Positions 7,293-52,931 of a DNA stretch of 64,000 bases are shown one piece after another. The first letter of the stretch is position 1. Each line of letters begins with the position of its first letter. The notes under the pieces were generated by a model that searched no databases, was not told the DNA's origin, and was given only the letters and a program-made list of their open reading frames with translations. Source of the stretch: Neophaeotheca triangularis (lineage: Eukaryota); assembly GCA_054600435.1 (NCBI GenBank), contig BAAIJX010000067.1:1-64000 (forward strand), written 5' to 3'. The translations under genes and the position numbers were made by a program.

Positions 7293-10200
7293 ATGTCAAG
7301 CGGTCTTCCGGCGCAGTCTGTCCTGGGTGGTGGTGGTGTTGGAGGAGGTGCGGCACATACTGCTGCGGCGGCCAGTGAGACTGCGCAAAGTAAGAAGGAT
7401 TTGACCAGTTGGTGGCGCAATTTTAAGCGCAGTGATCGGGATAAGCAGAAGGAGGTGCAAGAGATTGTTCAAGGTGAGCTTCTCCCATATCTTCATGTCT
7501 AGACAGGGTGGACGTCAGATTCTGGAGTTCTCTGGAGGCAGCAAGTGCGCGGGACTCGTCTGCTGAGTGCGCCGAGTGAGGGATACCGGAAGCACTCGGT
7601 GTGTCGTTTCGAGATGAGTAAGAAACTCCATACTGACACGACTTTCTCACCAGCTCCGCAAGGCATCTTCGGTATACCTCTGCAAACGAGTATAAGATAT
7701 GCGAATGTTGCCATCAGTCTCTTCAACGATGAAGGTCAGAGCTACATCTACGGCTACGTACCCATCGTAGTCGCAAAGTGCGGCGTCTTTCTTAAAGAGA
7801 AAGGTAAAACTTACAAGATCCCAACACACGCCCGACTCTGAAGCTCATCATTATCCCCATAGCAACCGATGTCGAGGGAATCTTCCGTCTCTCTGGCTCG
7901 GAGAAGCGCATCAAAGAGCTCAAAGTCGCTTTCGATTCACCCGACCGCTACGGAAAAGGACTGGACTGGACAGGCTACACTGTTCACGATGCCGCCAATA
8001 TCCTCCGTCGCTACTTCAACCAACTCCCGGAACCAATCATCCCCCTCGATTTCTACGAGCGCTTTCGGGAACCGATCAGGAATCACCAAGCGCAGGCTGT
8101 TGGCGCCATGGATGCTCAATCCCCTAGTGTGGGAGAGTTTGACCACGACGCAGCTATCGTAAAGTACCAAAACTACATCACTGAGCTCCCGCCACTGAAC
8201 CGGCAGCTGCTGCTGTACATTCTGGACTTGTTGGCTGTGTTTGCCTCCAAGAGTGATTTGAACAAAATGACTACACCCAATCTGTCGGCTATATTCCAGC
8301 CGGGCATCTTGAGTGCACCGCAGCACGACATGGCACCGCAGGAATACCGTCTCAGCCAGGATGTGCTCATCTTCTTGATCGAGAATCAGGACAGCTTCCT
8401 CATAGGGATGCAGGGAACTGCTGCCGATCCAGAGACTGTCAAGGAAGTGCAGAGTGGTGTCCCAACCCCTACCAAGCCAACCACGCCGACGACGCCAAAC
8501 AGGAACAAGACGATAATTGGACGGACTTCGTCGAACGCTTCCGTCGGTGCTGAGAGTATTCGTCGGTCGGGTGTTTTACGCCGCAACGTTAGTGTCAGCA
8601 GCAAGCATAGCAAGAAGAGTGACGCTTTCACTTCTACACCAATCTCGCCTGGCGGTGCGCACACTCCTACAGGAAATAGCGGTGGGATGCATCGCAGCAA
8701 CACAGTCCCTTCTAAACGGAGTGGCGCAACACAGTCTCCGATGTTTTCGCGCGACAAGCACTCTGATCCTCCCACGCCGAGCCCGAGTACTGTCGCAAAT
8801 ACGCAGGCTGTTACTGCGGACAAGGGAGACAGCTCCATCCAAAGCACTCCCGTCCCACCTACCACGGAGAGATTTGGAAGCGGCCTCGCCATGCCAAAAG
8901 TCACCTCCCCTTCTGCGCCTTCGAGCGAGGGGACGACCCCTCTGGCAGTTAGCAACAGCGACGCTCAGTCTGCGCTGAGCAGGGATACAGCTACTAGCAG
9001 CAGTAGACGCGACACGACCCCTCTCCTCGCTCCACGCTCTACCAGTCAAGTACCCCACGAGCCCCGTGACCGCAACGTAAGCAGCTCGACAACCTCTTCC
9101 CGTGGCTTCCTCGACACCTTTTTCAAGCCTGGCCACGGCGCTGTCGAGACTTCCGATCGCAAGCCCAACAAGCTCCAAAAACGCCGCATCCCCGGATCTG
9201 CTCTTAGCTCCGCACAGTCCTCCAGCCAAAGCCTGCAACACGAGCTCACAAACGAAAGCCAAAATCAGCCTTACTACAGTAATAATCGGGGCGGCTACAA
9301 CTACCCCCAAACCCCCGTCTCCCCCACCTCTCCAACAACCGAAAACCCTTCTCCCATCGAAGAGGCCTACTACACTCCCGCACAATCCACTCCGATCCAC
9401 ACTCTTCCCACCAATCCCCTCGCTGTAGCCGGCGCAACTGCCCCAACCCCACAACGCATGCCCACCGACGCGACCCTTCGCCCCTGTTCTCCTACCCACT
9501 CCTTCACCAGCGCCAGTCGCACCAGTGTCACAGACATTAGCGACGCAGATATGGTTGGCGACGACATGCCCCCGCCAGCTACGCCTTCCTACCACACCCA
9601 ACGTGGACAAAGTGAAAGCAGCAGCGCCGGTGGTGGAGGTGCAGGTGGAAGCAGTGTAGGCGCCAAAGAGAAGAAGAGGCACCGCTGGCGCTTCTCTAGA
9701 CATGAGCGGCAGCAAAACACACCTGGGGATCAGTCGCAGCAGAAATACAGCGAAAGGGATGCCCCGGCTTCCGCAGGAGGTACCGGCTATGCAACAGCTC
9801 TGGCAGGCAGCAGCCGTAGCACCGTCGGTAGTGGCAGCGCAGGCAACCGCCGCAGTTTCCAAGAAGCCGCCGCCCCTCTGTCGTACACAGACCAAAACAA
9901 CACGCCCACGCACGCGCCACCACCTCCACCCGCCACGAGCGCGGGTTTCACTTCCACTCCCACCACAGCTGCCGGTACTGCCAGCGATACCGGCGTCTTT
10001 TCCGACAGTGAGCGCGAAGCAGGTGGCACGGGCGGCAAGAGAGGTCTCTTCTCCCGCTTTCGCAGCAAGATTCGCGAGAGGGGCAAGACAACGTCCTCTG
10101 CTTCTGGAGGCGAGGGCGGGGGAAAAGGCAGCGAGAGTGTCGAGAGCAGTCGTGGAAGGGGGGAGAGTTTTGGCGAGCAGCGGAGGGAGAAAGACCGGGA

Positions 10201-11206
10201 GGAGCGGAAGATTGAGAGCGACATGCCAGTCAGAAGTGCCGGCCGGGAGGAGCAGGTACTGTCTGGAGAGCAAGGACAACACCAGCAACAGCAACAACTA
10301 CAACAACCTCACGCCGTCCAGACTTCGACCCCCACGATCCGGGAAACTGAGGAGTCCACAACCGCCGCCGTCACAACTGACCCTTCTCGCCCTTCTCAAC
10401 TCGCCGTCATGGTCCCCCAGACCGAAGACCAGCCCGTCTCAACATCACCAACCGCCGAGACCGCTCCCAGCCTCGAACCTAGCCAGCGCGACGTCAGCGC
10501 CGGTCTGGGAGCGGGTGATGTTGTTCCGCTACCACAAGAGCCTGCGACTACAGGCTTGGGAGGTAATGGCACTGCTGTAGAGAGGACCAGTGGTGACGGT
10601 GAAGCGGTTGGCGCGAGAGACGATGGCAGCGTTACGGTTGCTACTGTCGATTCCGCCCCTCCCGCCACTTCTTTGAATGCTTTGCCAACTTCTGCTGCTG
10701 CTGGTGGGGTAGGTACGGGTGTGGGTACGGGTTTGGGCGCTACAGGCGCTGCTGCCACCGATCTGGGGACTGCCATTTCCGCGCCAACCGAGACGAACTC
10801 TACTGTTGTCGGTTCTGCGCCGACTTTGGTGGCTGTGGATGAGGCGGCCACGGTTGATACTGGCTCTACCGCTGCTGCTGCTGCGAGCGGAGTTGAGCCG
10901 GTGGGGGGTGCGGTTGAGGGTCCAGGGTCGGGCCAGGGTCAGGGTCAGGGTGATGGCCAGGCGGAGCTGGCGGGAATGGGAACGGGAATGGCCCCCAGTG
11001 ACGCGGACGCGAAGGCTACCGAAGAAACTGCCGGGCGTGGGTTGAGTGAGACTGAGACTACGGCCGCTACTGCGACTGAGGACGCTGCTGCTGCTCCCGG
11101 GCTAGACAACGAAGTGGATCGTGGTGTCGTGGCTGAATCGGGGCCTGGGATTTCAACCGAAGGTCCCTTGGGCGAGGACCAACCGACTCCGAAGCCTAGG
11201 ACTTAG
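7293..11206 (+). CDS. Rho GTPase-activating protein, Sac7/Bag7-like (exons 7293-7473, 7654-7803, 7863-11206)
   Basis: GIFGIPLQ...YGYVPIVVAKCGVFLKEKATDVEGIFRLSG (arginine finger) ...RQLLLYILDLL...NKMTTPNLSAIFQPGIL is a RhoGAP domain, followed by a long low-complexity tail. Confidence 0.9.
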
Positions 11207-31203: not shown

Positions 31204-32970
31204 TTATGCCCGCTTAGATACCTTGACCGGACATTCGCCAATCTGGTAGCTAAACCACGTACTCGCGTGAGTCCAGTGCTGTTTGGGATCGACAAGCTCG
31301 AACTGCAACCGATAAGTCAGCAAAAGACTCAATACACCCCGCAACGTCTCAGACTCCCCCGTGACAAGGAAACGAGCCAGAACATACCTCAAACCGCTTG
31401 AGCAGCGTCGATATGGTTTTCGTAACTTCCAACATCGCCATCCTCTTGCCCAAACAAACCCGACTGCCCGCCCCAAATGACAGAATACTCGCCCTCATCT
31501 TCTTACTCCTAACCGCAAACTCCTCCTCCCCCTCCCCTTCCTTTCTCAGCCACCTTTCCGGCACATACTCATCGCGATCCTCCCCGAACACCTCCTCGGT
31601 CCGCTGCACCACGTACGGGTTCATGCCAACAATAGTGCCAGGAGGGATCTGCGAGCCATCGGTAAGGATTAGGCCTTCTGGGCCCACGATGCGTTCGAGG
31701 AGGCCCGACACGCCCGGCCACGTTCGCGTGCCTTCTTGGATGCAGGCGTCGAGGTAGGGGAGTTGCAGAGCGGTTGTGTAGTCGGAGGGGAAGGAGAGGG
31801 GGGTGGCGTCGAGTTCGGCTACGAGACGGTTTTTGATGCGCGGGTTGCGGATGATGTTGTAGAGGATTGCGTTGAGGGTGATGGCTGTCGTGTCGCCTAA
31901 AAAGGGTGTCAGTGTTGGCTCGACGGGGCTGTGGTTGGGGTTCGGTGGTTTTGCAGGCCGATGATGGCGAGATGGAGACTCGACCTTTAGCTAGCAGACT
32001 TGCATCCCGATGCTGCCGCGACACGATGGGTGAGAGACCTACCAGATGCAAGAACGTTGAGAGTGGACCAGCCAAGGACAGACACGTCACTAGCCGCAAC
32101 CTTGGGGTCATTCTTGAGCGAGACAAAGAAATCGAGGAAGTCGTTCTTCTCCAGCTCAACCCCCTTCGTCTTAGCCTCCTCAATCTCCGCGAACCGCTCG
32201 CCCAGCTTCGCCATGCAGTACTCGACAGCCCACAGCGACGAGCCGGAAGAGAAGTTGACATACCCCCTTAACATCTTAGTAGCGGGCCAATCGATTCTAG
32301 ACCCCATCTGGCCCTTCTGCGCCATCCAATAAGTGCCCTTCTCCCCACTCTCAATCTGCGAATTGATATCGTGACCAGCATCCAACATGCCAATGCGCTT
32401 GCTAAACGTAAACTCGGAAGCGACATCGTAAGCATAGAACTTCATCATAGCTCCCAAATCCATGGTCTTGCCCGTTTTGACGAAGCGCTCCTCCAGCAAA
32501 CCGCAGAAATACGTCAGCGTCTCATCAATGCGCGGTTGCAGCGCGAGCATGCGCGGGTGCGAGTTATAGAAGGCGTGGATGGGCGCCACCATGCCGCGGT
32601 GGGTTTCCTTGTTGCGCACGCCGAAGACGTTTTGGATCACTTTGCCTCCTGGCAGCATGACATCTTGGGCGGAGTAGAAGTCGGATTTGACGAAGGCGCT
32701 GGAAAGTCGGGAGCCGTAGATTTTGGGGATCAGAGAAGCGTCGGCGATGGAGACGAGATTGGGCCCGTAGCGGACTGCGGCGCCGTGGCGGCGGTGCTGC
32801 TCCAGGAGGATGGTGTGTTGTTGGTCCCATTTTGTATAGCGGAACCAGTCGGTCAATCGAGCAAGGGTTGGGCCGGGGTATCTGGATAGCGGAGAGAAGA
32901 ATAAGGTGTAGAGGTATTGAGAGAGAACGATGAGGGCCAGGGCGATGCCTGCAAGCACGAGGTTGAACAT
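31204..32970 (-). CDS. Cytochrome P450 monooxygenase, ~511 aa (exons 32970-32043, 31896-31388, 31302-31204)
   Basis: N-terminal anchor plus PLSRYPGP, I-helix ASGDTT, ExxR (EGTR), PERW and heme motif FGAGSRVCLG. Confidence 0.93.
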
Positions 32971-34554
32971 GGTGGCGGCGGTGGCGGCAGATCTGGGGGA
33001 GTTGCTTGTGAGAGGGGAACCACGCCGCGGGCGCGAGGGGGAAGCCTCTTTTTGACGAGGATCCTGAGGGGCATCTTGTCGGATTAGAAGCTCTTTCGTT
33101 GGAGGGAACTAATCGTGAGGCCCTTCGCTTGTATCCTGCGACTCCTGCTCTCTGCTTCCGCGGTTGCCGGTTTTTGTGGAGAATGAGCGTAGAGCAGTTC
33201 GTCGAAGGATGAGCGGTCGCTTCATGAGGTGGGGCGGGCGCATAGGGAGTACACGTATGAGGTGATAACGGGAACAAAATTACACAAGGATATCGTGGAG
33301 CCCAAGTGATTGATACCGTATGCATTGACCTGACGTTGGACGGTTGGAGCCAGCTTAGGGTGTCAAGTTAGCAGCACCGGCGTTCGGGCCGGGGGACGGC
33401 AGACGGCCGCCCGCAACGGCTTCTCCGCATCTATATATCTTCCGTGCAATCAGTTTTGCGGCTTACTGTTTTGTGGTTATCAAGCAACATCACGTTACTT
33501 CGCCTATTTCCGCCAAGATGCTGTGCACGCGAGGCGAAGGGTTGTCGACGTCTGCCATGTCAAAGTGCCGGCATGATAAGCGGTGGCGTTTCAACGAAGC
33601 TTTGCTGCTGCAATCCTGCTGTCGGTACTGGTGAATTCTTCGTCGGCTTCTATCTCAGCAGTGCCGTACTGAAATATGTGGATTCTGGATTTTGGCATAT
33701 TTCCTCGCTCAAGTGAGAAAGCTGGAAAGCAGACGAATCGTTCCCTGTCTAAAAGTAACGAAGTCCACGGGGTCAAACGTCGAGTTACTAAACGTCGGAC
33801 GTGCTTTGATCAACGCTTGGTAACAAGACTTATCCCTCGACTCGTGGCCCACCGCCTCTTCTTTCCTAGTGCACTAGCCCGGAGCTCTGCTCATAGTAGG
33901 TGTTAGCTGTATCCTAGTGAGACTGGTGCTACCCATAGTCTCTTCTCCCCCTTGTAGCTTTCATTTGGCTCCCCCTTGATCAACACGTTCTCCGCTACCT
34001 TCTGCAGTCATGACCTGCCATTCGTGAAAAGCCGTCCGAATCTCGTGGCACCACATGGTATGAGCAGTAAACCTGGTGCGTAGCGTGGCCGGAGTTTCCC
34101 ACCTCGACTCGTCTTCCTTGGTTTCGCCCTCTTCTTGTCAAGCGAACTTCGACTGCCTACTTAGCATGTCGATCTTTTTCGAGGTTTGCACAGGTTCGAA
34201 TTGCCAGGTTCAATCATGTGAAGCCCGCCCCTTTTGTTTTATACATGAGTCTGTACCGCTATGTCGCCAATTGAACATTTGCCACGTCCCTAAAAATGTG
34301 TTCCCACCATTTCGATCACAGCGGGTAGATCACCAACCAGCGCCCCTTCAGCGTTGCGAGTTTCGAGCTCCTTTTTCTCTACTAAGTCTTGGTTGTTGTG
34401 ATCTGCTGCAAATCGCTCTCCCGTACCAGACGTTACGGCCCTTTTCATCTCAGCTTCAACAGGCGGATCCAAACCGACTTCTACGGCCCCGATTCATTCC
34501 CTGGACCTAGGCCCAAAAACAATCCATCGAGAGATCGCCCGTGAGTATTTCACG

Positions 34555-35724
34555 ATGGCCAACGCCCTCGGCGGCCGCGGCCCCGTCATCATCATTGTCC
34601 TCTGGGTCGAATCCATCATCGCCTGCATCACCTGCGCCCTGCGCGTGCACACGCGCATGAACATTTCCAAAGCGCGCTTCGGCTGGGACGACGGACTCTC
34701 AGTGGCATCGGGAGTCGTCCTCATCGGCGCCGCAGCGACGGGAACCTGGTCAACACTCGAAGGCTACGGGCGCGCCACTGAAGACGTCCTGGCTATCGAC
34801 CCGCGGCTTGTGCCTCGGGCGCTGTTGGCACGCATTATCAGCCAGGCGTTTATGATTGTAGGGATTGCGACGAGTAAGGCGAGCGTTGCGGCGTTTTTGC
34901 TGCGCATTGTTGCCGTCCAGTGGCATAAGGCTGTGTTGTGGTTTACTATGCTGAGTCTTGCAACGCTGACGACGATTATCAATGTTCTGAATTTTTTGCA
35001 GTGCACGCCGCCGCGGGAGACGTGGGAGCGAACGGGAGATGGTTATTGCTGGCTCGATATCACGCCGCCGTCCCTGACGCTGGGCATTTACTGCACCATT
35101 GTCGATTTTGGGCTGGCATTGTTTCCCTGGCTCGTGGTGTGGAATCTTAACATGCCCAAGAAGGATAAGATCAATATTGGGTCTGCGCTGAGTCTGGGCG
35201 TGTTGGCGGGAATTGCGGGTGCGATTCGCACGTCTGAGATCCCAACCTTGGGGAGCCGCGACCAGCTGTGAGTAGCATAGCACTTCTTTCATGCCTCCAA
35301 AGACTCAAATACTAACCAATGCGCTAGACTGGACACTGTCCGCTTCTTCCTCTACAGCAACTCGGAGCTGGCAATCACCGTCATCGCCGCCAACATCGCC
35401 GCCCTGCGCCCCTTGTGGAAGAAATGGCTCGGCCGCCGCACCAACGTAACCTCAAGCAAAGCCAGCGCACCCTTGGGACACGCCACCATCGGCGGTACGG
35501 AGCCCTCCCGGCACCGCACAGCCGGCAGTCAGGGTTGGAACGAGCTGGACAAGTTCGGCGCGGGCTTGGGAAACAAGGGAAGAGGGCATAATCAGGCTAG
35601 TGCCGTGGGCCCAGAGAACACGAGCGAGGAGAACATATTGCAGCCTAAGGATGGTATTAGGGTGAAGGATGAGTTGGATGTATCGGTGGAGAGCAGGTAC
35701 TCACTAGAGAGTGGGAAGCGGTAA
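34555..35724 (+). CDS. PTH11/SAT4-like fungal rhodopsin-domain integral membrane protein, no CFEM domain (intron 35268-35327)
   Basis: LRVHTR...FGWDD...GYGR...SKASVAAFLLRI...QCTP...W...C...DFGLALFPW...LNMPKKDK...ELAITVIAANIAALRPL, with about 7 hydrophobic helices. Confidence 0.9.
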
Positions 35725-37034: not shown

Positions 37035-37358
37035 TGCAGGAGAGTAGAAGCTCGCGTAGTAGTTCGAGACCTTTGGTATGTAGGCTGAGGAGGATATTGG
37101 TGAGAGGTGCCGGTGTCAATGTCGCTGCCCTTGTTTCTCCTACGCTTCCACTGCTTGAAGCTTGATGGAGGTGCGGTTGCTAGCTCCGTTCATGCAGTGC
37201 ACGGCCACGCCCGAAAGCGCTAACCCCATTGGGAAACTTTCTCTCGCTTTTGGTCTCGCAAAGTCCGACGTCTGACCTTTTCGATATCAGAAAGCCCCCC
37301 ACATTCCAGAAGGGAGTCTGATTTGGGACTCGGAGATCTGTGTAGATTCCCGGTCAAG

Positions 37359-40300
37359 ATGGGAGACATCACCAGCTCTTCGCTTGAACGTCTCAAGAAG
37401 CTCGACGACAACCCAAATCTTGAAGCGGCCCTGAAGGATGCGTGGGAGCTATGCACCCACAGTACCCGAGCCGAGTGGCTACTGAGATGGCTCCAGGGAA
37501 AGATACAAAGCAGCCACACTGTCAGAGACAAATCAATTCAGACTTGGCTCAACTACGAGAAGGCCCTCAAGCACCTCAGCAATAGCAAAATTGCCAACAT
37601 TCTGGACCCGGAGGGCTTGAGGAAGATCTGGAGGGTTCCCGACATCTACGAGCTCCCTGCGATGGGTTGCTACTTGCAAAGGGCTTCAGTTTTGGCGATC
37701 CTGCTGAAACGAGCTGCAGAGCCAAATGGGGCTCCGATCAAGGCTTTGCTTCGGTGGGACAGCAGCAAGGCGAGCGCTTTGGTTGGGTCCTGGTTGTCTG
37801 CCCTCATGTACGAAACGAGCTTGGTAGATTTTGCCAAAGTCGAAGGATCACGCCTGGTCCAGTCTTGCCTAAAGCTGTGGGCATTGCGAAAGCCCAGTGT
37901 CGATGAGGACGAGGATTTTGCTAACCGGATGCTGGGACCACTATGCTCGGCACTGGCTGGCTTGATTCATGCTGCGGACGTACGAAAGACCGACAGAAAA
38001 CGCAAAAGGGATCAAGACCCTGAGAGTGATGAGTTTCAAGCTTGCATCAAGGGTATAGAAGCACTCATCGCTCGTCACGTCTTCATGCCCGCAAGAGCGG
38101 CTTTCTTTGCTTCGAAAATTCCTCCTCCTACCGAAGGAGAAGGCAGACAACCGCCAAATACCAGTCTGTACTCCAAATTGTCGCACTTGCGGGAAGGGTA
38201 CATACGCCGTGGCGTTGTAGTGTTCTCGTGGATGGAAGTGCTCCCGATTCTCACAAACGTTGCGCTGCGATGTGTGAGCTTGCCAACACCAAGACAAAAG
38301 CTCAAGGAACAGCCATGGGTCGAGACTCTGTACACTGCTTTCTTGAACTGCCTTGTACACCCTGACATGATCGAGAGTAACAATATCGAAGTACAGACAG
38401 CAATACTCAAAGAAATAAGACAACACGCAACGCTATCTACCGATTTCCTCCGCGAGGTCGTCAAAAGTAATGTCACATTCGCCGATGAAGAGTGGGAAAG
38501 GCACATGGAGCTTTGCGCCGAAGTCATTGAGCTCGATCCGGAAGTTTTCGCTCTCGACGAAACGACGAATCTTAGCGACAAGCTCTTCAAGGCTCTGACC
38601 AAATACGGCAAGCAAATCATTCCTTTGAACGAGACATCTGCTTTCGTTTCGGAGAAACAAAAGCTCTGCAAAGACGGGGTAGCAGCTCCTCTCTTGCAAG
38701 CTGCTGCCAAGACACGGAAGCTCCCCCAATTCATTGCGCGATGGCACGCCGAGCTCGCGGCCATGGATGACATCCGAGTTATCGACTGGTGTGTCTGGAC
38801 AGATCTGCACGATGCACTGGCGGACGTGCTTGAAGTGAGCTTGACCCAAACACAAATTACCGAGTCGATTGAACTCTGCTACGAAGATATAAAACCCCTT
38901 TCCGCTGCGATCAGCCGTGATTTGACCAGCATACCTTCCGGAGAATACGAGGAGAAGCTGCGCCGGTTCAATGCCAGCGTCATCGTGCTCAAGGCAGTGG
39001 TTGCAGGAATCGAAAAGGACAAGCTTGAAGATGCTGCATTCGAAAGGATTGAGGAGGTATATGACGAGCTGGTGCGCAATGCCGACATTCTTACGGCCGA
39101 CCCGGCTAGAGCATACTGGCTACTCGATTTTGACAGGAGATTCTGGCCTTTGGCAAGTAGACTCTTCGAGATCTGGTTCCCGGCGTGGTTATCTAAGCAA
39201 CCAAGTTCATCAAGGGCCGAGAAGGGCGCTGTTGCGCTCATCAAAGGAGGTATTTGTCCTGCAGCCGTGATTAATGTCAGCCTAAATGCCGACCAAGTTA
39301 CGATGCAGAAGCGCCGACACAAGATGGCCCTGAGCAAATTTGGCAGACACGAGACACAAAAACTTGCTGCCGACTTTATTGCTTGCCTGTGCGGACGCCT
39401 TGTTCATTACGAGGGCTGCCAGACCCAGGTGAGGGACTTTTGCTCTGCTGTCCAGCAGGCCAAGCCAGAGCTTGCTGAAAGGACCCTGATTGCCTACCCT
39501 CATCTCCTACAATGCTTCCCAGGAGGCATCGACGCAAAAGAGCATGGATCGCTTGATGCTCTCGAGAGGATGGCGATAGATGCGCCCCCGACACCTGCAG
39601 AACTCGATGCGATGTTTGTCGAGCCAGCCAAAGCACGAATGGCTGCTTTCGCCGGAGACGAGAGCTTCCAGACAATTATCAACTTCTACTCCGATTCTTT
39701 GCGCGAGGGCAGTACGGAAATCAAGGAGCACTTTGCGCTGAAGGCGCTCAGCTCAATTCCTACGAGTCGCTTCCCCCGGCAGCAACGGGAAAGCCTTTTG
39801 AACACATGCGCAACCAGGCTTGATCACCCGTCTCGTGGATTGCAGACCGCGGATCGACTCTGTCTACGCTTCGCCTTTATGGTCAAACTGTTACAAGCAC
39901 CCCACGGTACAGCGGAGATAACCACCAATGCTTCCGTCCTCTGGAAGCTCGCACGCTTTGAAGTGGTAATATCTTCATGGGCCGAAGGCTTTGCGGGGAG
40001 AGCGAAGACCGTGTGGAAACTCTTCAATGAGGTTGTGAATCTTGTTCTTCAGCCTCTGACCGCAAATTGGAAGCAGGAGCGGAACGAGAAAGTCCTAGAG
40101 AGCCACCTTCGAAAACTACAACGGATGGCAGAAGCTACTTGCAGACCCGAGACTTCGACCATAACCACTGGCGAGCTCATATGTGCAGCTGCTTTGCTCG
40201 AAGAATGTTCTTCAAAGGGAGTGAAACGAGAAGGGCTGCAGTCCGCGCTTGAAAGCCGTGTGCTGCCGGTGTTAAGGTTGAGGATTGCTCCCGTCCCTGA

Positions 40301-41543
40301 CTCTTTGCAAGCCGGACAGGGGCACCCACCTGGTTATACCGTGGATCTTGATTTTGTCTTACGAACATGGATGTACATTGTTCGGGGAAGCACCAACAAC
40401 ACTCCTGGCGTCCAAAACAAGTTGCACACCGAGTTGTCAGGCTTGATCGCTTCTATGCTGAGTCTCTGGGATTCTAAATACAGGCATGCAGACGAGACTG
40501 AGTTTCCCAACTCCTGCTTGCCTTGTTTGTTCGAGCAAGCTACTCAATATGCCGGTTTCAGTCAAAGCAAATTGGAGGAGACGATGACTCCGGCGCTTTT
40601 CCATCACGCGCTGGAGGCCCGTGTGAGCAATAGTGACCGGCAACGTATTTCCCATTCCATTGCGAAGTGGATGGACAACTGCATACACATCACGGATGAT
40701 GTCCTCGCGGGATCTGTAGCTGACCTTGATCAAAGCACCATCACCACTGGAGGACTGAGATTTCTCCAATGCTGCATACGCCGCCTGACCTACGGTGAAG
40801 ACAAAAAAGTGGCGGCTGTTCCCAGCATTCTGCCGGCTTTGCTCAAATTCCTCAAAACTTGCAAAGACTTCGGCCAATATCGCGCAGCCTTTGCCTGCGT
40901 TTCCGAGATGCTTCGCAAGCACAACAACCGCACGAACCAATTCACAATCGAGCAAACCATCACTGTCCTCCACTCCTTCGTCACCACAAGCCCGGCTGCT
41001 GAAGCGGACAGCCTCATCTACCTCGACGTCTGCCATCTCGCCTCAACGCTTCTCCTTCAGTACCGCCCGCGCCTCAAAGGCCGCTATCACCTCCTGCTCG
41101 CCTTCTTCCAGGCGCTCCTCACCCGCCTCTTCAATCCCAACAAGCCGCCACAAAATCGGTCCCATAGGCCCCTCGGTCCCAAACACGCGCATGCCTTCAC
41201 ACGCCTCCTGACTCTCTTCACGAACCCTCCTGCTTCTCGCAAGACCAAATCCCGCGATTCCTCCAACAACCTCATCGATGAATCCCGCCTCGCGCGCGCC
41301 CGCGTTGGAGAGTTTCTCCCAGCGCTGCTGCACCACTACTGCGCTCTCGTATTGCAAAGGACCATGTCCGAAGGCGTTCGGGAGGAGCTTATGCCGGGGC
41401 TGTGGACGGTGCTGGAGTGTATGGAGCTTTTCGACCAGGAAGCTGTCAAGGTCTTGAGTTCGGCTGTCAATGCTAGTGAGAGGGCTGTGCTCAGGGGTGT
41501 GGTGGAGGAGTGGAGGGTTCTCGGGAAGTGGAAAGGGGCGTAG
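37359..41543 (+). CDS. URB2: Nucleolar pre-ribosome assembly factor Urb2/Npa2-like, single exon
   Basis: ~1390-aa helical ORF with N-terminal AEWLLRWL and a C-terminal Urb2-type block (RYHLL...FTRLLT...LMPGLWTVLE...RAVLRGVVEEWRVLGKWKG). Confidence 0.8.
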   Translation: MGDITSSSLERLKKLDDNPNLEAALKDAWELCTHSTRAEWLLRWLQGKIQSSHTVRDKSIQTWLNYEKALKHLSNSKIANILDPEGLRKIWRVPDIYELPAMGCYLQRASVLAILLKRAAEPNGAPIKALLRWDSSKASALVGSWLSALMYETSLVDFAKVEGSRLVQSCLKLWALRKPSVDEDEDFANRMLGPLCSALAGLIHAADVRKTDRKRKRDQDPESDEFQACIKGIEALIARHVFMPARAAFFASKIPPPTEGEGRQPPNTSLYSKLSHLREGYIRRGVVVFSWMEVLPILTNVALRCVSLPTPRQKLKEQPWVETLYTAFLNCLVHPDMIESNNIEVQTAILKEIRQHATLSTDFLREVVKSNVTFADEEWERHMELCAEVIELDPEVFALDETTNLSDKLFKALTKYGKQIIPLNETSAFVSEKQKLCKDGVAAPLLQAAAKTRKLPQFIARWHAELAAMDDIRVIDWCVWTDLHDALADVLEVSLTQTQITESIELCYEDIKPLSAAISRDLTSIPSGEYEEKLRRFNASVIVLKAVVAGIEKDKLEDAAFERIEEVYDELVRNADILTADPARAYWLLDFDRRFWPLASRLFEIWFPAWLSKQPSSSRAEKGAVALIKGGICPAAVINVSLNADQVTMQKRRHKMALSKFGRHETQKLAADFIACLCGRLVHYEGCQTQVRDFCSAVQQAKPELAERTLIAYPHLLQCFPGGIDAKEHGSLDALERMAIDAPPTPAELDAMFVEPAKARMAAFAGDESFQTIINFYSDSLREGSTEIKEHFALKALSSIPTSRFPRQQRESLLNTCATRLDHPSRGLQTADRLCLRFAFMVKLLQAPHGTAEITTNASVLWKLARFEVVISSWAEGFAGRAKTVWKLFNEVVNLVLQPLTANWKQERNEKVLESHLRKLQRMAEATCRPETSTITTGELICAAALLEECSSKGVKREGLQSALESRVLPVLRLRIAPVPDSLQAGQGHPPGYTVDLDFVLRTWMYIVRGSTNNTPGVQNKLHTELSGLIASMLSLWDSKYRHADETEFPNSCLPCLFEQATQYAGFSQSKLEETMTPALFHHALEARVSNSDRQRISHSIAKWMDNCIHITDDVLAGSVADLDQSTITTGGLRFLQCCIRRLTYGEDKKVAAVPSILPALLKFLKTCKDFGQYRAAFACVSEMLRKHNNRTNQFTIEQTITVLHSFVTTSPAAEADSLIYLDVCHLASTLLLQYRPRLKGRYHLLLAFFQALLTRLFNPNKPPQNRSHRPLGPKHAHAFTRLLTLFTNPPASRKTKSRDSSNNLIDESRLARARVGEFLPALLHHYCALVLQRTMSEGVREELMPGLWTVLECMELFDQEAVKVLSSAVNASERAVLRGVVEEWRVLGKWKGA

Positions 41544-45549: not shown

Positions 45550-48500
45550 CTAAGCAGGCACGAGCGTCCTCTTCTCCCTAAGCGTGGGCAAGCGTCCCAG
45601 CTCGCCCGGCCTCTCCGACTCAAACTCCTCGGCTGGCCAACCCTGACAAACCACGCCCTCCTCGACAGTCTCGCCCGCCATGACAAGCGTGTGCTCCAAC
45701 AGCACGCTCTCGGCTTCCATCCTCGCGCCGGGTAACAGCCGACTCCCGCTGCGCATGGCCGCGCCGTCGCCGACGTAGAGCTCGTTGAGTTCGAAATGGC
45801 CGCGCGTGTTGATGTGGCCGACCAAGCTCGCGTCGTCGATGGAGACGTTGTTGCCGAGGGTGAGGAGGTCGGGTTCGGTGAAGGTCAGGGACGGACGGCC
45901 GGAGGAGAAGAGGGAGCAGTTGCGGCCGATTTTGGCGCCGAGGGCGCGGTAGTAGAGGATCAGGTAGTGGGTTGAGGTTAGGAGGTCGAGGATGCCGTTG
46001 CCGCCGTAGCAGGACCGGCGGAGCGTTTCGAGTTTGAGGTAGAGTTGCCAACGTTGGCAGTAGGAGGAGCGGTCCCAGCTGTAGTTGCCCGGGCGGCGGC
46101 GGCCGATGAGGATTCTTTTGGCGCCGAGGAGGAAGAGCAGGGCGAGCAGAGCTTGGGTGGTCATGAGGACTGTTATTAGGGCTGTGAAGAGGGCGTAGAC
46201 GAGGAGGGGGCGGTGGGGCGCCGAAGGGGAGAGGAGGATGGGTTTTTCGTGCCGGAAGATACCTTGGGATTGGAAGTCGAGGGAGAAGAGTTGGAGCGCG
46301 AGGAGGGAGCCGAGATTCCAGTAGAGGGCGGTCAGGGTGATGATGGTGGTCGAGTAAAAGGCAATGGTCCATTGGCCCCAGACGCGGTAGGGGGCTCGGT
46401 TGAGGTAGAAGGCGCGGCCGAACGGGGAGGAGGATTCGAGGCTCGAGGCGGGTTTGGTGACGAGGGATTCAGTTGCCGAGGCGTCCTCGGAGCCATTGGC
46501 AACGGAGTAGCTGTCGCTGCTGTCGCTGCCGGATGCTCGGACGTAGTTGGTCGATTGCTGCAGCATTTCTATGCCCGACGTCAAGTCTGTGAGGGTATCG
46601 GCTGATGAGTTCATGCTGAGCAGCTGGTGTTTCTCCGACGCACGCGTGCCGTATGGGTGGGGGTGTTGCTGAATTAGCGCGTCCGATTTGTGATGCTGGC
46701 CAGCAGCCACGGACTTGCCGCCTTCGGTCAAGCAGATGGCATCGTTATTCTTGCTGCCGACCCACGTGGTGAAATCCTCGTAAAAGGCATCACGTCGAGT
46801 CAAAGCTCCACTGCCCATAACCACCCTTTCACCCAGCGTCACACCCGGCAACAACACAACCCGATCAGCAACCATAGTATTGGCTCCAATCTTGACGGCC
46901 CCGCTCCCAATGCCATCAGAAGTCACGATATGCGACCGGGAACCGAAAACAACATCATCTCCAACCTCCACAAGATCGAAATCCTGGATACTGGGTCCGG
47001 TCCCAGGCCAATACACCCGTTTCCCGACCTTGGCACCCATCATGCGAGCCAGAATCGACGTCATTTCGTAGTGCGCGCCGAATAGATCGGTAAGCTTGTG
47101 GAATTGCCGAGGAGGCATCAAGTCCCGCATGAGCTGCATCCGGAAAACCGTCATGTTGGATCTCTGCCGTGCTGACCCGGGCCGAATGGGCCCGTACCTT
47201 GCGTCGAAGACTCGTTTGACGAGCACGACTGCTGCAAAGTAAAACGCCGGGCCCAAGGCCGTGTGTGCCGCCAAAGCAAGCACATGCAACCCCACCCGCT
47301 CGGGGCTGGCGAACCAAATAATAGCGTCGCGGAGGCCATCGTAGCGCTCACCGTAGACTTCGGGTTCGTGGAGGACGAGCGGGACAAGGCAGGAAAGCCA
47401 GGGGACAGCGGAAACGAATTTGCAGAAGATCATGATCGGCCAACCGAGGAAAACGCGGAGCAGGAGATGGGATTGTGGGATTTGACTCGCCCCGAGGTCG
47501 CGCATTGAGCCGTCGTCGCTGGCGTCGTCGAGTTCCCAGCTGCTAGAATTAGGGCCAATGCTTGCGCCAGGGGGGACTGTAGTGCCGGGTGCGACTGTCG
47601 AGGCGAGCCCGACGCTGCTGTTGGCGTGGAGCGTGATGCGGCCGAGGTACATGCGGGTTTTCTTCTCGGCGGCGAACGCGCGGACGGTGCAGCGCTCAAG
47701 GACGGTATTGGGGCCGAGAGTGATGAGATCGTGCTCACCTAGTTCGGCGCCCTTGGCTATAGTAACGTTGCGGCCGATGCTGGCGCCGAGGAGGCGGTGG
47801 TAGAGGACACGGGAGAAGTTTGACCAGTTGAAGACGCCGAGGCCGCCGATTGCGAGGGCTTTTTGCACAAGCCACCAACGGGTGTGGTAGGTCGAATACA
47901 TCGGGAAAAGGCCTTCGCGGTAGCGGCCGATAATCAGCCATTTGAAGAGAATGGCGACAATGGGTGCGACTGTCTTAACAACGAGCTGACCAACGGCAAG
48001 GGCGTAGACGAGATCGATCAGTCTCCCGGCTATGTGTTCGTGCAATTTCCATCCCTGCGTTGATACAAGGACAAAGGCAAATGTTGTCCAGCCGAGAGCG
48101 CGTTTGAGAGGAAAGAAGACGGAGATTGGGAGGAGGTTGAGAAGGAGAAGGAGGATGTTGGTGGATTCATAAACGCGTTCGTCCTCAGTTCCAGGCGCGG
48201 GCTGAGGGCCAGAGGTGGGTTGAGTTGGCTGGTTGGCATTCGCAGCTTCACCATTGCCGACCATCTCTGAGATGAAGGCTGCAATGGTAGAGACCCGGCG
48301 CTGGGTGAAGAGAAGATCGACCGTCAGGCGGGTCTTAAACTCCTTCTTAAGAGCCGAAAGAACCCGTCCAGCGGTTAAGCTATCTCCTCCCAGCTCGAAG
48401 AAATCGCTATCGCCATCAATCTCTTCTTCGGGAACGGAAAGCACGTTTGCGAAAATGCCAGCGACTGTTTTCTCGGCGGCGGAATGATCCTTGTCCTCGC

Positions 48501-50995
48501 CACGCTTCGGCATCTGTGGATGCGAAATCCGCAACAGATGCCCCCGATCGACTGTTCCATCTGCACTTCTTGCGAAAGGCTCCTCCAGCAAGTGAACGCG
48601 CAAAGGAACATGATAACCATGCACCTTGCCCCTCAGCCTCCTCTTCAAAGCCTCTCCATCCACGACAGTCTCCGCACGCACCGTCTTGGGCGCAACCCAA
48701 AGCTCCGGAACGCCTCCACGCGCGTGATCAACTCCTGTGGCAACCTCCATACCCTCGCCAAGTATATCTTCGCAAGCTCTTGTCAACACCTCCTCAGCGG
48801 TCTCGGCGCCTTCCACGGGCTGGCTCGGGATGGGGACTTTCAGCGAAGTGTCGGGCGGCGGGCATTGTGCTTCCCAATGCGTGCGACGCACATCTGCGAC
48901 AAAGTCGACGGAAAGTTCGGGGAGTGCGAGGCGGTCGGCGAGGTTGATGCGCAGTATCTTGTTGTTATTGGTAGGTATGCCGCCCTCCATGTACACGATG
49001 AGCATTGGTATTTTGGCAGCAGCAAGATAAGGACGGAGGGAGTCTTGGAGGTCTTTCAAAGAGGGTCGGAGGGCATTGCGCGGGGTCGTAATGGCCACGC
49101 CGACGACTTCTTGCAGTACGTCGTGCGGGACGCTAAAGGCTAGAGCTTTGTCGACACGGTCGTGGATGGGAGAGGATGGGACTTTGGCGGAAGTGACAAT
49201 GGCGTCTTCTACTTCAAATGGAGAGATCAGTTCGCCGCCGCGGTTGATCACTTCTTTGCTGCGTCCGGTGATGTATAGGTAGCCTTCAGTGTCAAGGTAG
49301 CCTAAATCACCCGTCTCAAACCACCCAGCGTTGTCTGCGGAGAAGCACGAAGTATCCAGCGAGTCGTCGGGCAGCAAATAGCCTTCGAAAACGGGCGATC
49401 CTCGAACGTGGATGCGGCCTGTAGTTTGGGGTGGTAGGGAATTGGAGTTGGAATCCAGGATGCTGATTTCGGGTCCAACACTGCAGCCCGAGGTTCCGGG
49501 CTTCGACATGTTGTAGTCGCGCGGCGGTGAAGAAATTGGCATGCATTCAGTCATGCCATAGGAGGGAAGGACGGGGCAGGAGAAGGTTGCGCGGAGCTGG
49601 TGTGCGAGAGATGGGAGAAGACCTCCGGCTGCGTTTGCGATGAGTCTGAGCTTTGTTCGGGGTGGAGTTGAGGATGAAGAGCGATCGTGGAGGGCGGTGA
49701 GGTACCCTTGATGCATGGAAGGAGAGGCGTAATACCTAAAGTCAAGAGGTGTCAGCTTCCAATGTCATGGTTCAACAGGCTGATCAAGAGTCGCCATTCG
49801 AATGCCACTTCGCAGTTGCCAAGCCTTACCATGTAGGCTCGTAAGTCTCAATACACTCCCAAAAGCCTTCCCCATCGAAGCCTGGACAACAGATGATGCT
49901 GCCACCAGTCACCACAGGCGAGAACAGATTGCGGACCAGTCCACCGGAGTGGTTCAATGGCATTTGATTTAAACACCTCATCCCCGAATCCAGACCCCAA
50001 GACGCAGCCACCATGCCAACACCCGACAGAAGCGAGTGTAAGCGAAGGGGAACAATCTTCTTCTTGCCAGAAGTTCCCGAAGTCGTCAAGAGAATCGCAG
50101 CATCGTCTGGCCCGTTGGGTTGATTGCGGGTAGTGCTTTGCGATACCAGACCGTTGGAGAGTGACTGCAACTCGGGAGTCATGGTCTGAGGAGACAGCTG
50201 CACCAATGTCACCCGGATACCACTTTCCTCCAACCATGGCTTGCGCAGGCCAAGGCGCTCGACATCTTCAGGAGAAGCCATGATGTGAGAGGCCCGTGAT
50301 GCCAGGACATCAGACTTGAATTGCTCTGCGCCGACGTTTTGGCCGTGAGCAAGCGGTGCCGCCGTGTAGTGAGTGGCGGTGCACAGCACTGTAAGGGCCA
50401 GTAGGAAGCCATTAGGTAGAGAGATGGCGACGACGGGTTTGCGAGTTTTGCGGGATTTATTGCGATGTTCGACGGTGAGAGAAGAACGGCGTCGAGCCGG
50501 GACAGTGGTTTGAACGGGTAAGGAAAAGTCGCGGATGCAGGCGTAAAGATTTCGATGGGAGAGGGTGTTGCCAGTTTCAGGGTCAATCAGTGCTGTTTCG
50601 TTCGAAGATGGATGGAGGACGTCCAGAATGGAATTGTAAGTCGCCTTGCATCTTTTCAGCGTTTGGCGGGCTAGTTGCGCCCCGGGGTGATTGCGTTCGA
50701 CTGTTCTCGCCTTGCTGGCCTCGGGTAATTGCTTCCAGAGCTCAGTGTAAGTCTGATGTACCTGTAGGACCGGCCATGGTAAGTCTCGCTTTCGCTCTAG
50801 AAGAGTGGAGAGGGCGTGTAGCGGAAGATGTGATGGCCTGTCGGGAGAACGTGGTATGGACGCTAAAAGTCTAGCGGGATCATCCTGGAAGTTGATGTTT
50901 ACCAGAAAGGCGTCGAGCTTGTGTTGTTCATCAGAGCTCAGCAGACTCGAGTCTTGATGTTGAACATGGCTGCTGCTGGTAGCCATGTCACTCAT
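45550..50995 (-). CDS. Pls/PosA-type membrane-bound single-module NRPS, ~1783 aa (A-T-three TM/hexapeptide-repeat units); candidate poly(malic acid) synthetase-like enzyme (intron 49736-49829)
   Basis: A-domain motifs TTSGTSGKKK, YGMTE, FETGDLG, GRSKEVINRGGE. Carrier motif FFELGGDSL (Ser codon ~48379-48381). Three repeats of hydrophobic helices plus R(L/M/A)(L/M)GA(S/K)(I/V)G...DL...G beta-helix units, ending GWPA. Confidence 0.9.
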
Positions 50996-52564
50996 GCCGT
51001 GATGGTCAATGAGATGCGATTAGGTGTATATGACAAGAAGAAGTATTCACAAGGCGTGTGTAAGTATGGTGGCGAAAACAGCAACACCCGAAAAGTCAAA
51101 AGGCCGCCCAAAGCCCGGAAGAGGCAACCGAGAGAGGCCAGAGAGTGAGAAGGCCGACTTGGTGATGGTGATCAAGCAGTAGGAAAAGACGGTAATGGGT
51201 TGAGCTTGCGAGCCGATTGTCGGGGTGTATACGGACAAAGAAAAGACCGAACTCCCAAGGTATGCAATGCAATGCGAAAGGTGGGCTAAAAGAGAAGCAA
51301 AGCCGGTGGTGGTGGTGGTAGTGGTAGCAGTAGTGAGGGGGAGGATGATGAAGGATCGGGAAGTGCGTGCGCTTGTGACCAAACAAGGACAGGCGCTAGG
51401 TCGTGAATTAATTGAGATCCGAGCGGGGACGGGGGAGGGCGAGAGAAAGAGAGAGAGAGGCAGAAAGGCGGGACAGGCACTAAGGAAGATAATAACTAGC
51501 AATAATTAGCTTAGGAGAGAAATGATGTGAGAGACAGAGCAGTAGTAGTAGTGAGAGAGGAAATATTATTGAGTCCGGGCGGCGAGGGTCCGCGGCGGCG
51601 AAATCTAGTTTAGATAGGGTAGGGTAGGTTAGGTAGGATGACCGATGTGGTGGTTAAAAGGGGCCGATAATGGCTTGGGAGGGAATGAGAGTTTTGCTCG
51701 TCCTGAGTAGTATCTATCTCGTACTGACCGTCCGGGTATCTAGTAGTAGTTAGTATCTACGACAGGACTATTGAATAATCCCAAGGAGGCGGCGAAAAAT
51801 GTGGCCGACACTCGTGATAGGCGTGTGTTGTTATTATTATTGTTGTTGTTGTTTAGTTGGTCTCGTCTGCCGTCCCTAGACCGGTGCCGCATCATTAGGT
51901 TGGTATCCTTTCAATAAGCATTTAGCAGTAGCGGCGTTTTGCCGTAGTGCCATGTCTCCTCGAGGGGAAGGACACCTACCACCACAACAGAGTCTGGGGC
52001 AAAAGAAGGGAGAGGGAGGGAAAAAAAAAGAGAGTTGGAACGGGGTGGATTAGGCTGTAGGCTGTCCGCCTCTAACAAGATCGGCAACGCTTAGCTCAGC
52101 CACGCTTCTCCTTGCAACGACTTGGCCGTGTGAGCTTGACCCAAGCCACGGTGGGATGGTGGGTGAGGAAGCACTAGTCTCTAGGCAGGTGTGATAACAA
52201 CGTGACCTTTAGGCGAGGCGGAGGTGAGAAGCGACGGGTAGGTGGTGTGAAGAAAAGCTGTGAGAGGTCGGTTGCGAGCTTTGCTCGGCTTGGCTCCAAA
52301 AGTAGACTTTGTTCATGCAGGGGTACCACGACTTGCACGACTTGAGCGAAAGGAGACGGGACCTCCGACGCTAATGAGGCGGAGATGGTGTATGAATTAG
52401 GCCGCTGAGGATTGGCTGCATGTCCTTGGTTGGAGGAGTGTAGGAATTCTTTCCCTCTTTATTATTATTCATGACATCCGAGCTTGCCGACTACCTAGGT
52501 ACCTACCTACTACGTACTGTATGGTGGAGTGTGGCGGGCTTTGTGATTGATGGCATTTCCATAC

Positions 52565-52931
52565 CACAGCCACAGCCACCTCGTCTCGTGACCTTATTAG
52601 AGCGCTGCGAGCGATATCCATGTCAATAACCATCACAGCCACATGGCAAACATCCAAGGGTGATGAAGCCTGCTATGTACCTAGCAAGGAATTTGCTATG
52701 ACAACGACGAATTAAGGTTGCCCGCGAGTACCCCTCACTACTGCCGTCACTACCCTCAGCGTGAGATGAGGTAAGGTAGGTACGTTACCTGTAGCTACCA
52801 CCAGACAGAACGGGATTCGGTGGGACATGGCCAAGCATTCTCCCACCGGTGCCTCCCTGATTCCAAGCTTTTCTTTTCTTCTGGGGTTCACCGTTCGCAG
52901 CAGCAGCAGCGGCAGAACTGTGCTTGCCAAG
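52565..52931. promoter_or_regulatory. Crz1-type CACAGCC x3 and PacC-type GCCAAG x2 in the divergent promoter of the NRPS and hydrolase
   Basis: CACAGCC at 52565, 52571, 52634; GCCAAG at 52830, 52926. Motif match only. Confidence 0.4.

Follow-up and report, generated by a model that had tools for sequence, protein, structure and literature searches.

A probable membrane-bound polyester synthetase of the polymalate synthetase family encoded in Neophaeotheca triangularis

We analysed a 64,000-nucleotide stretch of Neophaeotheca triangularis DNA (assembly GCA_054600435.1, contig BAAIJX010000067.1, positions 1 to 64,000; hereafter the window), the minus strand of which carries, at 45550-50995, a gene of two exons separated by one 94-nt intron and encoding a spliced product of 1783 aa. 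This gene probably encodes a single-module, membrane-bound polyester synthetase of the polymalate (PMA) synthetase family with malate as its most likely substrate, because the predicted protein is 46% identical end to end to proteins of Aureobasidium, is identical to them at 12 of 14 compared substrate-pocket positions and falls with them in one well-supported clade. An earlier note made from the sequence had flagged positions 48950..50995, which turn out to be the 5' third of the long gene, and had proposed a polyester rather than a polyamino acid as product. This proposal is supported by the combination of an adenylation domain of coenzyme A (CoA) ligase type with a Pls-type membrane module, and by the identity to the Aureobasidium proteins.

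The gene was assembled from two tandem open reading frames (ORFs), 49826-50995 (389 aa) and 45550-49716 (1388 aa), as follows.

45550..50995, minus strand: whole gene, ATG at 50995 and stop at 45550-45552 (ORFs, splicing by coordinates, end-to-end BLASTP).
49830..50995, minus strand: exon 1, residues 1-389, the intron interrupting the final codon; codes for the N-terminal extension and the first half of the adenylation core.
49736..49829, minus strand: predicted intron, 94 nt, GTAAGG...TTTAG.
45550..49735, minus strand: exon 2; remainder of the adenylation domain, nonribosomal peptide synthetase (NRPS) remnant, carrier domain and membrane polymerase module.

Removal of the predicted intron restores the motif PTWYYASPSMH, which is kept across the family in our alignment, in agreement with the prediction. 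The four strings quoted by the earlier note were all recovered in the minus-strand translation within 48950-50995. One of them, TWYYASPSMH (residues 388-397), is present as described but becomes contiguous only once the intron is removed, and the note had spliced it silently. In BLASTP, the spliced protein matched its nearest database protein (P0003) with 76% identity (1-1783 against 1-1793) and an Aureobasidium pullulans protein (P0072) with 45.7% identity (3-1761 against 2-1672), in a co-linear alignment. A decaying or silent gene without a product is very unlikely in this light: although residues 1395-1487 form a low-complexity insert and the gene is known here from sequence alone, the frame stays open for 1783 codons once a single canonical intron is taken out, no catalytic motif, carrier serine or family-invariant residue is lost, and the protein is co-linear with its relatives over its full length.

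The adenylation (A) domain was compared with the oxalate-CoA ligase AAE3 (AtAAE3) and with a set of 141 sequences consisting of the window protein and 140 relatives of at least 1500 aa, shorter relatives being left out. All hallmarks of an ANL enzyme are present, that is, the P-loop, the A5 motif YGxTE, the A7 Asp, the A8 hinge and the A10 Lys.

48922..50440, minus strand, intron included: adenylation (ANL) domain of oxalate-CoA-ligase type, residues ~186-660 (Pfam AMP-binding in both exons, phmmer against PDB, NCBIfam).
50057..50083, minus strand: A3 / P-loop TSGTSGKKK, residues 305-313.
49937..49969, minus strand: A4 region NQMPLNHSGGL, residues 343-353; His349 corresponds to AAE3 His214 (pantetheine-tunnel gate), Ser350 and Gly351 to pocket residues Val215 and His216.
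49612..49644, minus strand: LIANAAGGLLP, residues 420-430; Ala424-Ala425 at AAE3 Cys288-Ser289.
49537..49560, minus strand: A5 YGMTECMP, residues 448-455; Gly449-Met450 correspond to AAE3 Ala313-Met314 and Pro455 to His319.
49207..49266, minus strand: A8 / hinge GRSKEVINRGGELISPFEVE, residues 546-565.
48949..48969, minus strand: A10 NNNKILR, residues 645-651; catalytic Lys648 corresponds to AAE3 Lys500 and is Lys in 139 of the 141 family sequences.

When the exon-2 product was compared with solved structures by phmmer, the top three matches were oxalate-CoA ligases, far beyond chance: Pcs60 of yeast (8aff, 1e-35, 126 bits), AAE3 of Arabidopsis (5ie0, 8.9e-34) and LsOCS of grass pea (6qjz, 5.4e-33). 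The likeness to Pcs60-type ligases that had been noticed from the motifs is thereby borne out. The fourth row was a truncated oxalate-CoA ligase (8atd, 71.5 bits) and the next other family, MenE, scored ~70 bits; with the exon-1 product, the best 4 of 8 solved-structure matches were again oxalate-CoA ligases. HMMER aligned MPLNHSGGL against LPLFHVHGL and MPLFHVHGL. Pcs60, AAE3 and LsOCS are thus the closest solved relatives of the A domain, and they have in common with it the motifs PLxHxxGL, TWYxAxP, YxMTE and KExINRGGEKISP, the His gate and the catalytic Lys. They differ from it in context: Pcs60 and AAE3 are stand-alone, soluble ligases of ~515-545 aa, whereas the window encodes a membrane-bound fusion of 1783 aa, roughly three times their length, that includes a carrier domain and six transmembrane (TM) helices and in which the acyl acceptor would be the fused carrier and not free CoA. 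Among NCBIfam models, those of CoA ligases lead on the A domain (FadD7 family, 139 bits; malonyl-CoA synthase also high); TIGR01733, the model for amino-acid adenylation, scores 26.5 bits (cut-off 317).

The sole Pls/PosA reference used was P0420, a bacterial NRPS of this family (1335 aa) from a Sphingomonas plasmid record, and bit-score comparisons with it stood in for a tree with Pcs60, AAE3, Pls and Epls. The A domain of P0420 belongs to the amino-acid type, with 557 bits against gramicidin synthase and 259 bits against 7wew, the epsilon-poly-L-lysine synthase A domain. No phmmer match to this A domain was obtained with the A domain of the window protein (residues 101-660), which scores 655 and 581 bits to two members of its own family. 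The C-terminal part (residues 901-1783) matched P0420 with 120 bits (E 9e-34). Structure 7wew was absent from the 8 exon-1 matches and from the best 60 of the 123 exon-2 matches. A grouping of the A domain with lysine-activating Pls/Epls domains, which the earlier note had named as the finding that would speak against it, was therefore not seen, the P0420 A domain giving no match. The FD motif is also missing, as had been claimed: Ser350 stands where P0420 has SLAFDMS at A4. The column of AAE3 Val215, which we take to be the equivalent of the NRPS amino-group-binding Asp235, holds Val in 123 of the 141 sequences, Ile in 10, Ser in 2, Met in 2, Thr in 1 and Ala in 1, with 2 gaps; Asp occurs in 0. 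Judged by its sequence, the A domain is not an amino-acid activator, because it matches oxalate-CoA ligases, fails to match the P0420 A domain and has Ser instead of Asp.

Upstream of the carrier domain, the protein retains what appears to be a vestige of a second, NRPS-type A domain.

48472..48771, minus strand: vestigial C-terminal piece of an NRPS-type A domain, residues ~711-810; GYHVP...DGTVDR aligned to A9/A10 DYMVP...NGKLDR, with A10 Lys replaced by Thr.
48271..48468, minus strand: carrier (T / PP-binding) domain, residues 812-877 (PF00550, 2.2e-15).
48376-48390, minus strand: putative phosphopantetheine Ser841 in GGDSL, within the carrier domain.

In BLASTP, residues ~711-810 align with residues 449-545 of the P0420 A domain and the alignment continues straight into the carrier domain. 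The segment GYHVPLRVHLLEEPFARSADGTVDR was aligned by phmmer to the A9 and A10 motifs of PvdL, again with Thr at the A10 Lys, and the matches to PvdL, gramicidin synthase and 5u89 begin ~60 residues ahead of the carrier domain. The remnant is found family-wide: its proline is kept in 130 of the 141 sequences, and at the position of the A10 Lys the commonest residues are Ser (36), Asp (16), Thr (11), Glu (11), Gln (11) and Asn (9). Pfam run on the remnant alone gave no AMP-binding_C match, so that its assignment rests on the pairwise and PDB alignments. On our reading the remnant would be an inactive leftover of the amino-acid A domain of an ancestor. It points to domain replacement, and the protein resembles a Pls-type NRPS in which a complete CoA ligase has taken the place of the amino-acid adenylation core.

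Such an exchange is plausible since adenylating and polymerase parts are also found as separate genes. Two bacterial plasmid loci, L007 (4449-6989) and L009 (3136-4422, 4719-7109), encode Pls/PosA-family proteins (846 and 796 aa) that consist of carrier domain and membrane module only. On a Pseudonocardia plasmid, a separate AMP-binding protein of 428 aa is encoded immediately upstream of such a protein.

The remainder of exon 2 encodes the predicted membrane polymerase module, the domain order of the whole protein being AMP-binding, PP-binding and Hexapep (Pfam) followed by the Pls/PosA terminal domain TIGR02353 (NCBIfam).

47557..48132, minus strand: unit 1; TM1 (924-947), TM2 (957-990), helical linker and beta-helix 1 (~1053-1115) (AlphaFold2 model, hydropathy).
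46726..47466, minus strand: unit 2; TM3 (1146-1177), TM4 (1200-1236), linker and beta-helix 2 (~1290-1392, Pfam Hexapep match) (AlphaFold2 model, hydropathy, Pfam).
46441..46719, minus strand: Ser/Gln/His-rich low-complexity insert, residues ~1395-1487 (pLDDT <50 for model residues 481-573).
45625..46374, minus strand: unit 3; TM5 (1510-1548), TM6 (1561-1599), linker and beta-helix 3 (~1656-1759) (AlphaFold2 model, hydropathy; BLASTP to the last unit of P0420).

The C-terminal 869 residues were modelled with AlphaFold2 on a 16-row alignment, with a predicted local distance difference test (pLDDT) value of 80.2 and a predicted template-modelling (pTM) score of 0.80. The model contains three units with left-handed beta-helices, and hydropathy agrees with most of the modelled membrane helices. 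A Foldseek search of the PDB matched the beta-helices only, with 9 matches at E<=0.001 (best 2p2o_D, 3.1e-4, template-modelling score on the target ~0.5), and in this search no solved structure covered the membrane part. The best structural matches are maltose, galactoside and serine O-acetyltransferases and GlmU. Such acyltransferases take the acyl group of a thioester and transfer it to a hydroxyl or an amine. The hexapeptide-repeat O-acetyltransferases thus resemble the module in the fold of each of its three soluble domains and in thioester-to-hydroxyl acyl transfer, which is the chemistry a polyester synthase needs. They are unlike it in that the window protein has three copies in one chain, each anchored by a TM hairpin, and would, by analogy, use a carrier-bound thioester as donor.

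The same module relates the protein to the Pls/PosA NRPSs (epsilon-poly-L-lysine and delta-poly-L-ornithine synthetases, and fungal Epls). Both have an A-T arrangement followed by three units of a TM pair and a beta-helix, the C-terminal modules are homologous (24-28% identity to P0420), and an iterative, thioesterase-free mechanism is likely common to both. On the C-terminal two-thirds, TIGR02353 scored 172.1 bits (E 1.7e-50). The two types differ in that the working A domain of the window protein is of CoA-ligase type, its NRPS-type domain being reduced to the A9-A10 piece, and in that the bond made would be an ester and not an isopeptide. A non-amino-acid substrate, as initially proposed, is hence favoured by the pairing of a CoA-ligase-type A domain with a Pls-type membrane module, which argues for a polymerase supplied with a non-amino acid. 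A synthetase for a poly-amino acid, of the Pls, Epls or PosA kind and making for example epsilon-poly-lysine, would share the overall layout, the homologous C-terminal module and the NRPS-type remnant. This identity is nevertheless extremely unlikely, given the missing match to the P0420 A domain, the TIGR01733 score, the absence of Asp at the presumed amino-group-binding position, and a remnant that lacks the A10 Lys and everything ahead of A8. Passages of PMC7179176 give Epls as 51% identical to Streptomyces Pls with the lysine pocket kept, and Epls therefore represents a lineage different from that of the window protein. Searched against bacterial genomes with the C-terminal module, alignments were found at 6 loci and covered the hexapeptide stretch only (56-94 query residues, 24-37% identity).

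In order to evaluate the nature of the substrate, the pocket was compared with that of AtAAE3, where, according to passages of PMC8905533, oxalate is bound by Val215-His216, Cys288-Ser289, Ala313-Met314, His319 and Lys500, with Ser289 and His319 as the contacts conserved only in oxalyl-CoA synthetases. Equivalent residues were taken from HMMER alignments.

AAE3 His214, window His349: gate retained.
AAE3 Val215, window Ser350: pocket.
AAE3 His216, window Gly351: pocket.
AAE3 Cys288, window Ala424: pocket.
AAE3 Ser289, window Ala425: oxalate-specific contact gone.
AAE3 Ala313, window Gly449: pocket.
AAE3 Met314, window Met450: retained.
AAE3 His319, window Pro455: oxalate-specific contact gone.
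AAE3 Lys500, window Lys648: catalytic Lys retained.

Identity as an oxalate ligase was rejected, as Ala425 and Pro455 stand in for the two oxalate-specific contacts and the pocket is built of smaller residues. Across the 141 sequences the residue of the window protein recurs in 137 at Gly351, 138 at Ala424, 128 at Ala425, 136 at Gly449, 133 at Met450, 137 at Pro455 and 139 at Lys648. A Pcs60/AAE3-type enzyme that activates oxalate and loads it on its own carrier domain could be envisaged, the best solved relatives all being oxalate-CoA ligases and several database records bearing the name 'Oxalate--CoA ligase'. We consider it very improbable: Ser289 and His319 have become Ala and Pro in the window protein and in nearly all of the 141 relatives, oxalate has no hydroxyl and so gives no polyester, and a carrier and a polymerase module have no role in oxalate catabolism. 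The roomier pocket suggested by the changes of His216 to Gly, Cys288 to Ala, Ser289 to Ala, Ala313 to Gly and His319 to Pro would fit a substrate larger than oxalate.

L-malate is the monomer that we infer from the relationship to Aureobasidium. In A. melanogenum, the PMA synthetase described by Wang et al. 2020 (via the citing papers PMC11905612, PMC11286673 and PMC9210645) is encoded by a 5049-bp gene and has adenylation-like (A-like), T and condensation-like (C-like) domains, six TM regions and no thioesterase, as stated in passages of PMC11286673 and PMC9210645. Its removal abolishes PMA (passages of PMC9210645, PMC11286673 and PMC11905612), and it is under Crz1/Ca2+ control (passages of PMC11286673 and PMC9210645). 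The accession is given as QHD40385.1, with an A. pullulans ortholog 96.5% similar (in part of PMC11905612). The window protein has this published domain order: an A-like domain, a T domain, a six-TM C-like membrane part and no thioesterase. Its Aureobasidium relatives fall into two 90% clusters (126 and 52 members). Most of them measure 1685-1690 aa, the species represented include A. pullulans, A. melanogenum and A. subglaciale, and their NCBIfam profile is that of the window protein. Aureobasidium proteins of the size of the PMA synthetase are hence 46% identical to the window protein end to end, have the NRPS remnant in common with it and fall in the same clade; they differ from it at ~54% of residues and are ~95 residues shorter.

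By this reading, the A domain would activate a small hydroxy-dicarboxylic acid, most likely L-malate, with ATP. The acyl acceptor would then be the phosphopantetheine attached to Ser841 of the fused carrier, and not CoA; the carrier domain and its Ser are observed and their loading is presumed. The three-unit C-terminal module would let the free hydroxyl of an acceptor (malate or the growing chain) attack the thioester, forming an ester bond, and the cycle would be repeated. Since the chain would never be tethered, no thioesterase would be needed, and a chain growing at the membrane could be released to the outside. Ester formation by the beta-helix domains, untethered growth and release at the membrane are proposed here by analogy with Pls and PMA synthetase. 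The Pls chain is reportedly untethered and made without a thioesterase (work attributed to Yamanaka and colleagues, 2008). The insert at 1395-1487, between beta-helix 2 and TM5, may be important for product size, because the linkers beside the TM helices of Pls set chain length (Hamano et al. 2014, via citing passages).

Several observations weigh against polymalate as the product. The assignment of the 1685-1690-aa Aureobasidium proteins as PMA synthetase is drawn from size, architecture and species, and QHD40385.1 was not among the cluster members listed for them. The link between this family and PMA is a genetic one, and in vitro substrate activation is not reported in the passages of the PMA synthetase literature; searches for work on the enzyme in vitro or in heterologous hosts found only reviews and fermentation papers. 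The TIGR02353 score lies below the curated cut-off of 423.1, homology itself being clear. No malate-supply, export or hydrolase gene was recognised among the ORFs beside the synthetase gene. A. pullulans also has a separate antiSMASH region for non-alpha poly-amino acids (NAPAA). Finally, the pocket differs from that of the Aureobasidium proteins at two positions, with Asn348 for Phe and Ser350 for Val. At position 348, Asn is the majority state in the 141 sequences (N 75, F 32, H 14, Y 13). Ser at position 350 is found in 2 of 141, the window protein and its close relative P0003, and Val in 123.

These pocket differences could reflect the same machinery with another chemistry, namely a hydroxy- or dicarboxylic acid other than malate, short oligo-esters, or an ester conjugate on some acceptor. 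This is possible, although we hold it to be unlikely. In its favour are Ser350 in the window protein and P0003, the variability of position 348, the long branch of the window protein, and the size of a family (2035 representatives at E<=0.001) compared with the few organisms from which polymalate is reported (in part of PMC11905612). The remaining 12 pocket positions are however near-invariant in the 141 sequences and the same as in Aureobasidium, which argues for one common substrate, and a paralogous split separating the window protein from the Aureobasidium proteins is not apparent in the tree.

That tree (FastTree, LG+gamma, 1600 columns, midpoint-rooted, 141 sequences) pairs the window protein with P0003 on a long branch (support 1.0). 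The pair is sister to a mainly Capnodiales/Mycosphaerellales-type clade (0.993, 61 tips), and the two together meet the Aureobasidium/Elsinoe clade at a node of 89 tips (support 1.0). For the most part the tree follows the fungal classes, which fits a single orthologous gene. Four chytrid proteins (Geranomyces, Thoreauomyces) are nested among ascomycete (Dothideomycetes) clades, two proteins labelled Xylariales lie inside the Capnodiales-type clade, and Dactylellina is paired with Kalmusia; these odd placements could be due to gene transfer, assembly contamination or tree error.

A word-indexed search with the exon-2 product returned 1302 relatives. Among the 120 listed, the named ones are mostly from Dothideomycetes, together with Sordariomycetes, lichen-forming Lecanoromycetes, one Orbiliomycete and four chytrid proteins. 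Database names of the relatives mislead. They include 'hypothetical protein', and several full-length relatives are called 'acetyl-CoA synthetase-like protein', 'Oxalate--CoA ligase' or 'peroxisomal-coenzyme A synthetase', names that reflect only what the A domain is most closely related to and ignore the carrier and the polymerase. An HMMER scan with the C-terminal 869 residues gave the 2035 cluster representatives mentioned above, 238 of them at E<=1e-30. Of these, 150 were listed, and the 50 of at least 1200 aa all matched the A domain of the window protein, 46 with at least 150 bits; of the four weaker ones, three are apparently cut at the N terminus and one, P0364, is matched in two pieces. 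In this part of the family, to judge from these alignments, the CoA-ligase-type fusion is therefore the rule. A search for stand-alone ligases returned 740 matches, the best 120 of which are dominated by apparent fragments of the same family.

The enzyme type has been in print since 2020, so the reading made here is right without being new, and relatives are common in fungi. What is added here, modestly, is the pocket comparison with AAE3, the family-wide A9-A10 stump and the two unusual pocket residues of the window lineage. A more far-reaching and quite doubtful proposal is that enzymes of the PMA synthetase type are a large and almost unstudied class of fungal membrane polyester synthases, ranging from chytrids to lichen-forming ascomycetes and born when a complete Pcs60-like CoA ligase took the place of the amino-acid adenylation core in a Pls-type NRPS, and that the window lineage, whose pocket is unusually polar (Ser350, Asn348), polymerises a hydroxy acid other than L-malate. 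If the latter were true, its product would be a new natural polyester. Polymalate itself is a sought-after biodegradable polyester, the synthetase of which a 2022 review describes as not yet isolated or characterised (PMC9210645), and the gene offers one more intact ortholog for expression and assay. The family-wide swap of the oxalate contacts for smaller residues provides a concrete pocket hypothesis for malate, and the A9-A10 remnant would mark an adenylation-domain exchange site, a precedent from nature for supplying new monomers to polymerases of the Pls type.

One relative, P0285 (1702 aa), has an A domain without P-loop, A5, A7 and A10 Lys, yet its carrier domain is present and its membrane module complete (564 bits against that of the window protein). 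It pairs in the tree with P0279, adjoining a clade of Stachybotrys and Drechmeria. P0285 may be a polymerase dependent on another adenylating enzyme, or a dead copy.

Neighbouring ORFs in the window carry Urb2, RhoGAP, COX24_C, Band_7, P450 or fungal rhodopsin domains, or have no match, and no sign of a gene cluster around the synthetase was seen among them. Other genes include the following, for which no functional link to the synthetase was seen.

31352-33108, minus strand: cytochrome P450 pieces.
34402-35268, plus strand: fungal rhodopsin-domain membrane protein.
37224-41540, plus strand: Urb2/Npa2 ribosome-biogenesis protein.
7808-11203, plus strand: RhoGAP protein.

As for possible Crz1 sites, GNGGCKCA occurs 13 times in the window against 22.5 expected, with 0 upstream of the gene and 1 in its coding sequence, and thus lends no support to such control. 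CAGCCAC, one type of Crz1 site in the Aureobasidium PMA synthetase promoter according to passages of PMC11286673, occurs 23 times in the window against 10.1 expected (0 of 100 shuffles reached 23). Four copies lie within 550 bases on the plus strand (52097-52642; at 52097, 52567, 52573 and 52636), upstream of the gene start at 50995. A second CAGCCAC cluster is located at 1755-1790, and the motif may merely belong to short repeats.

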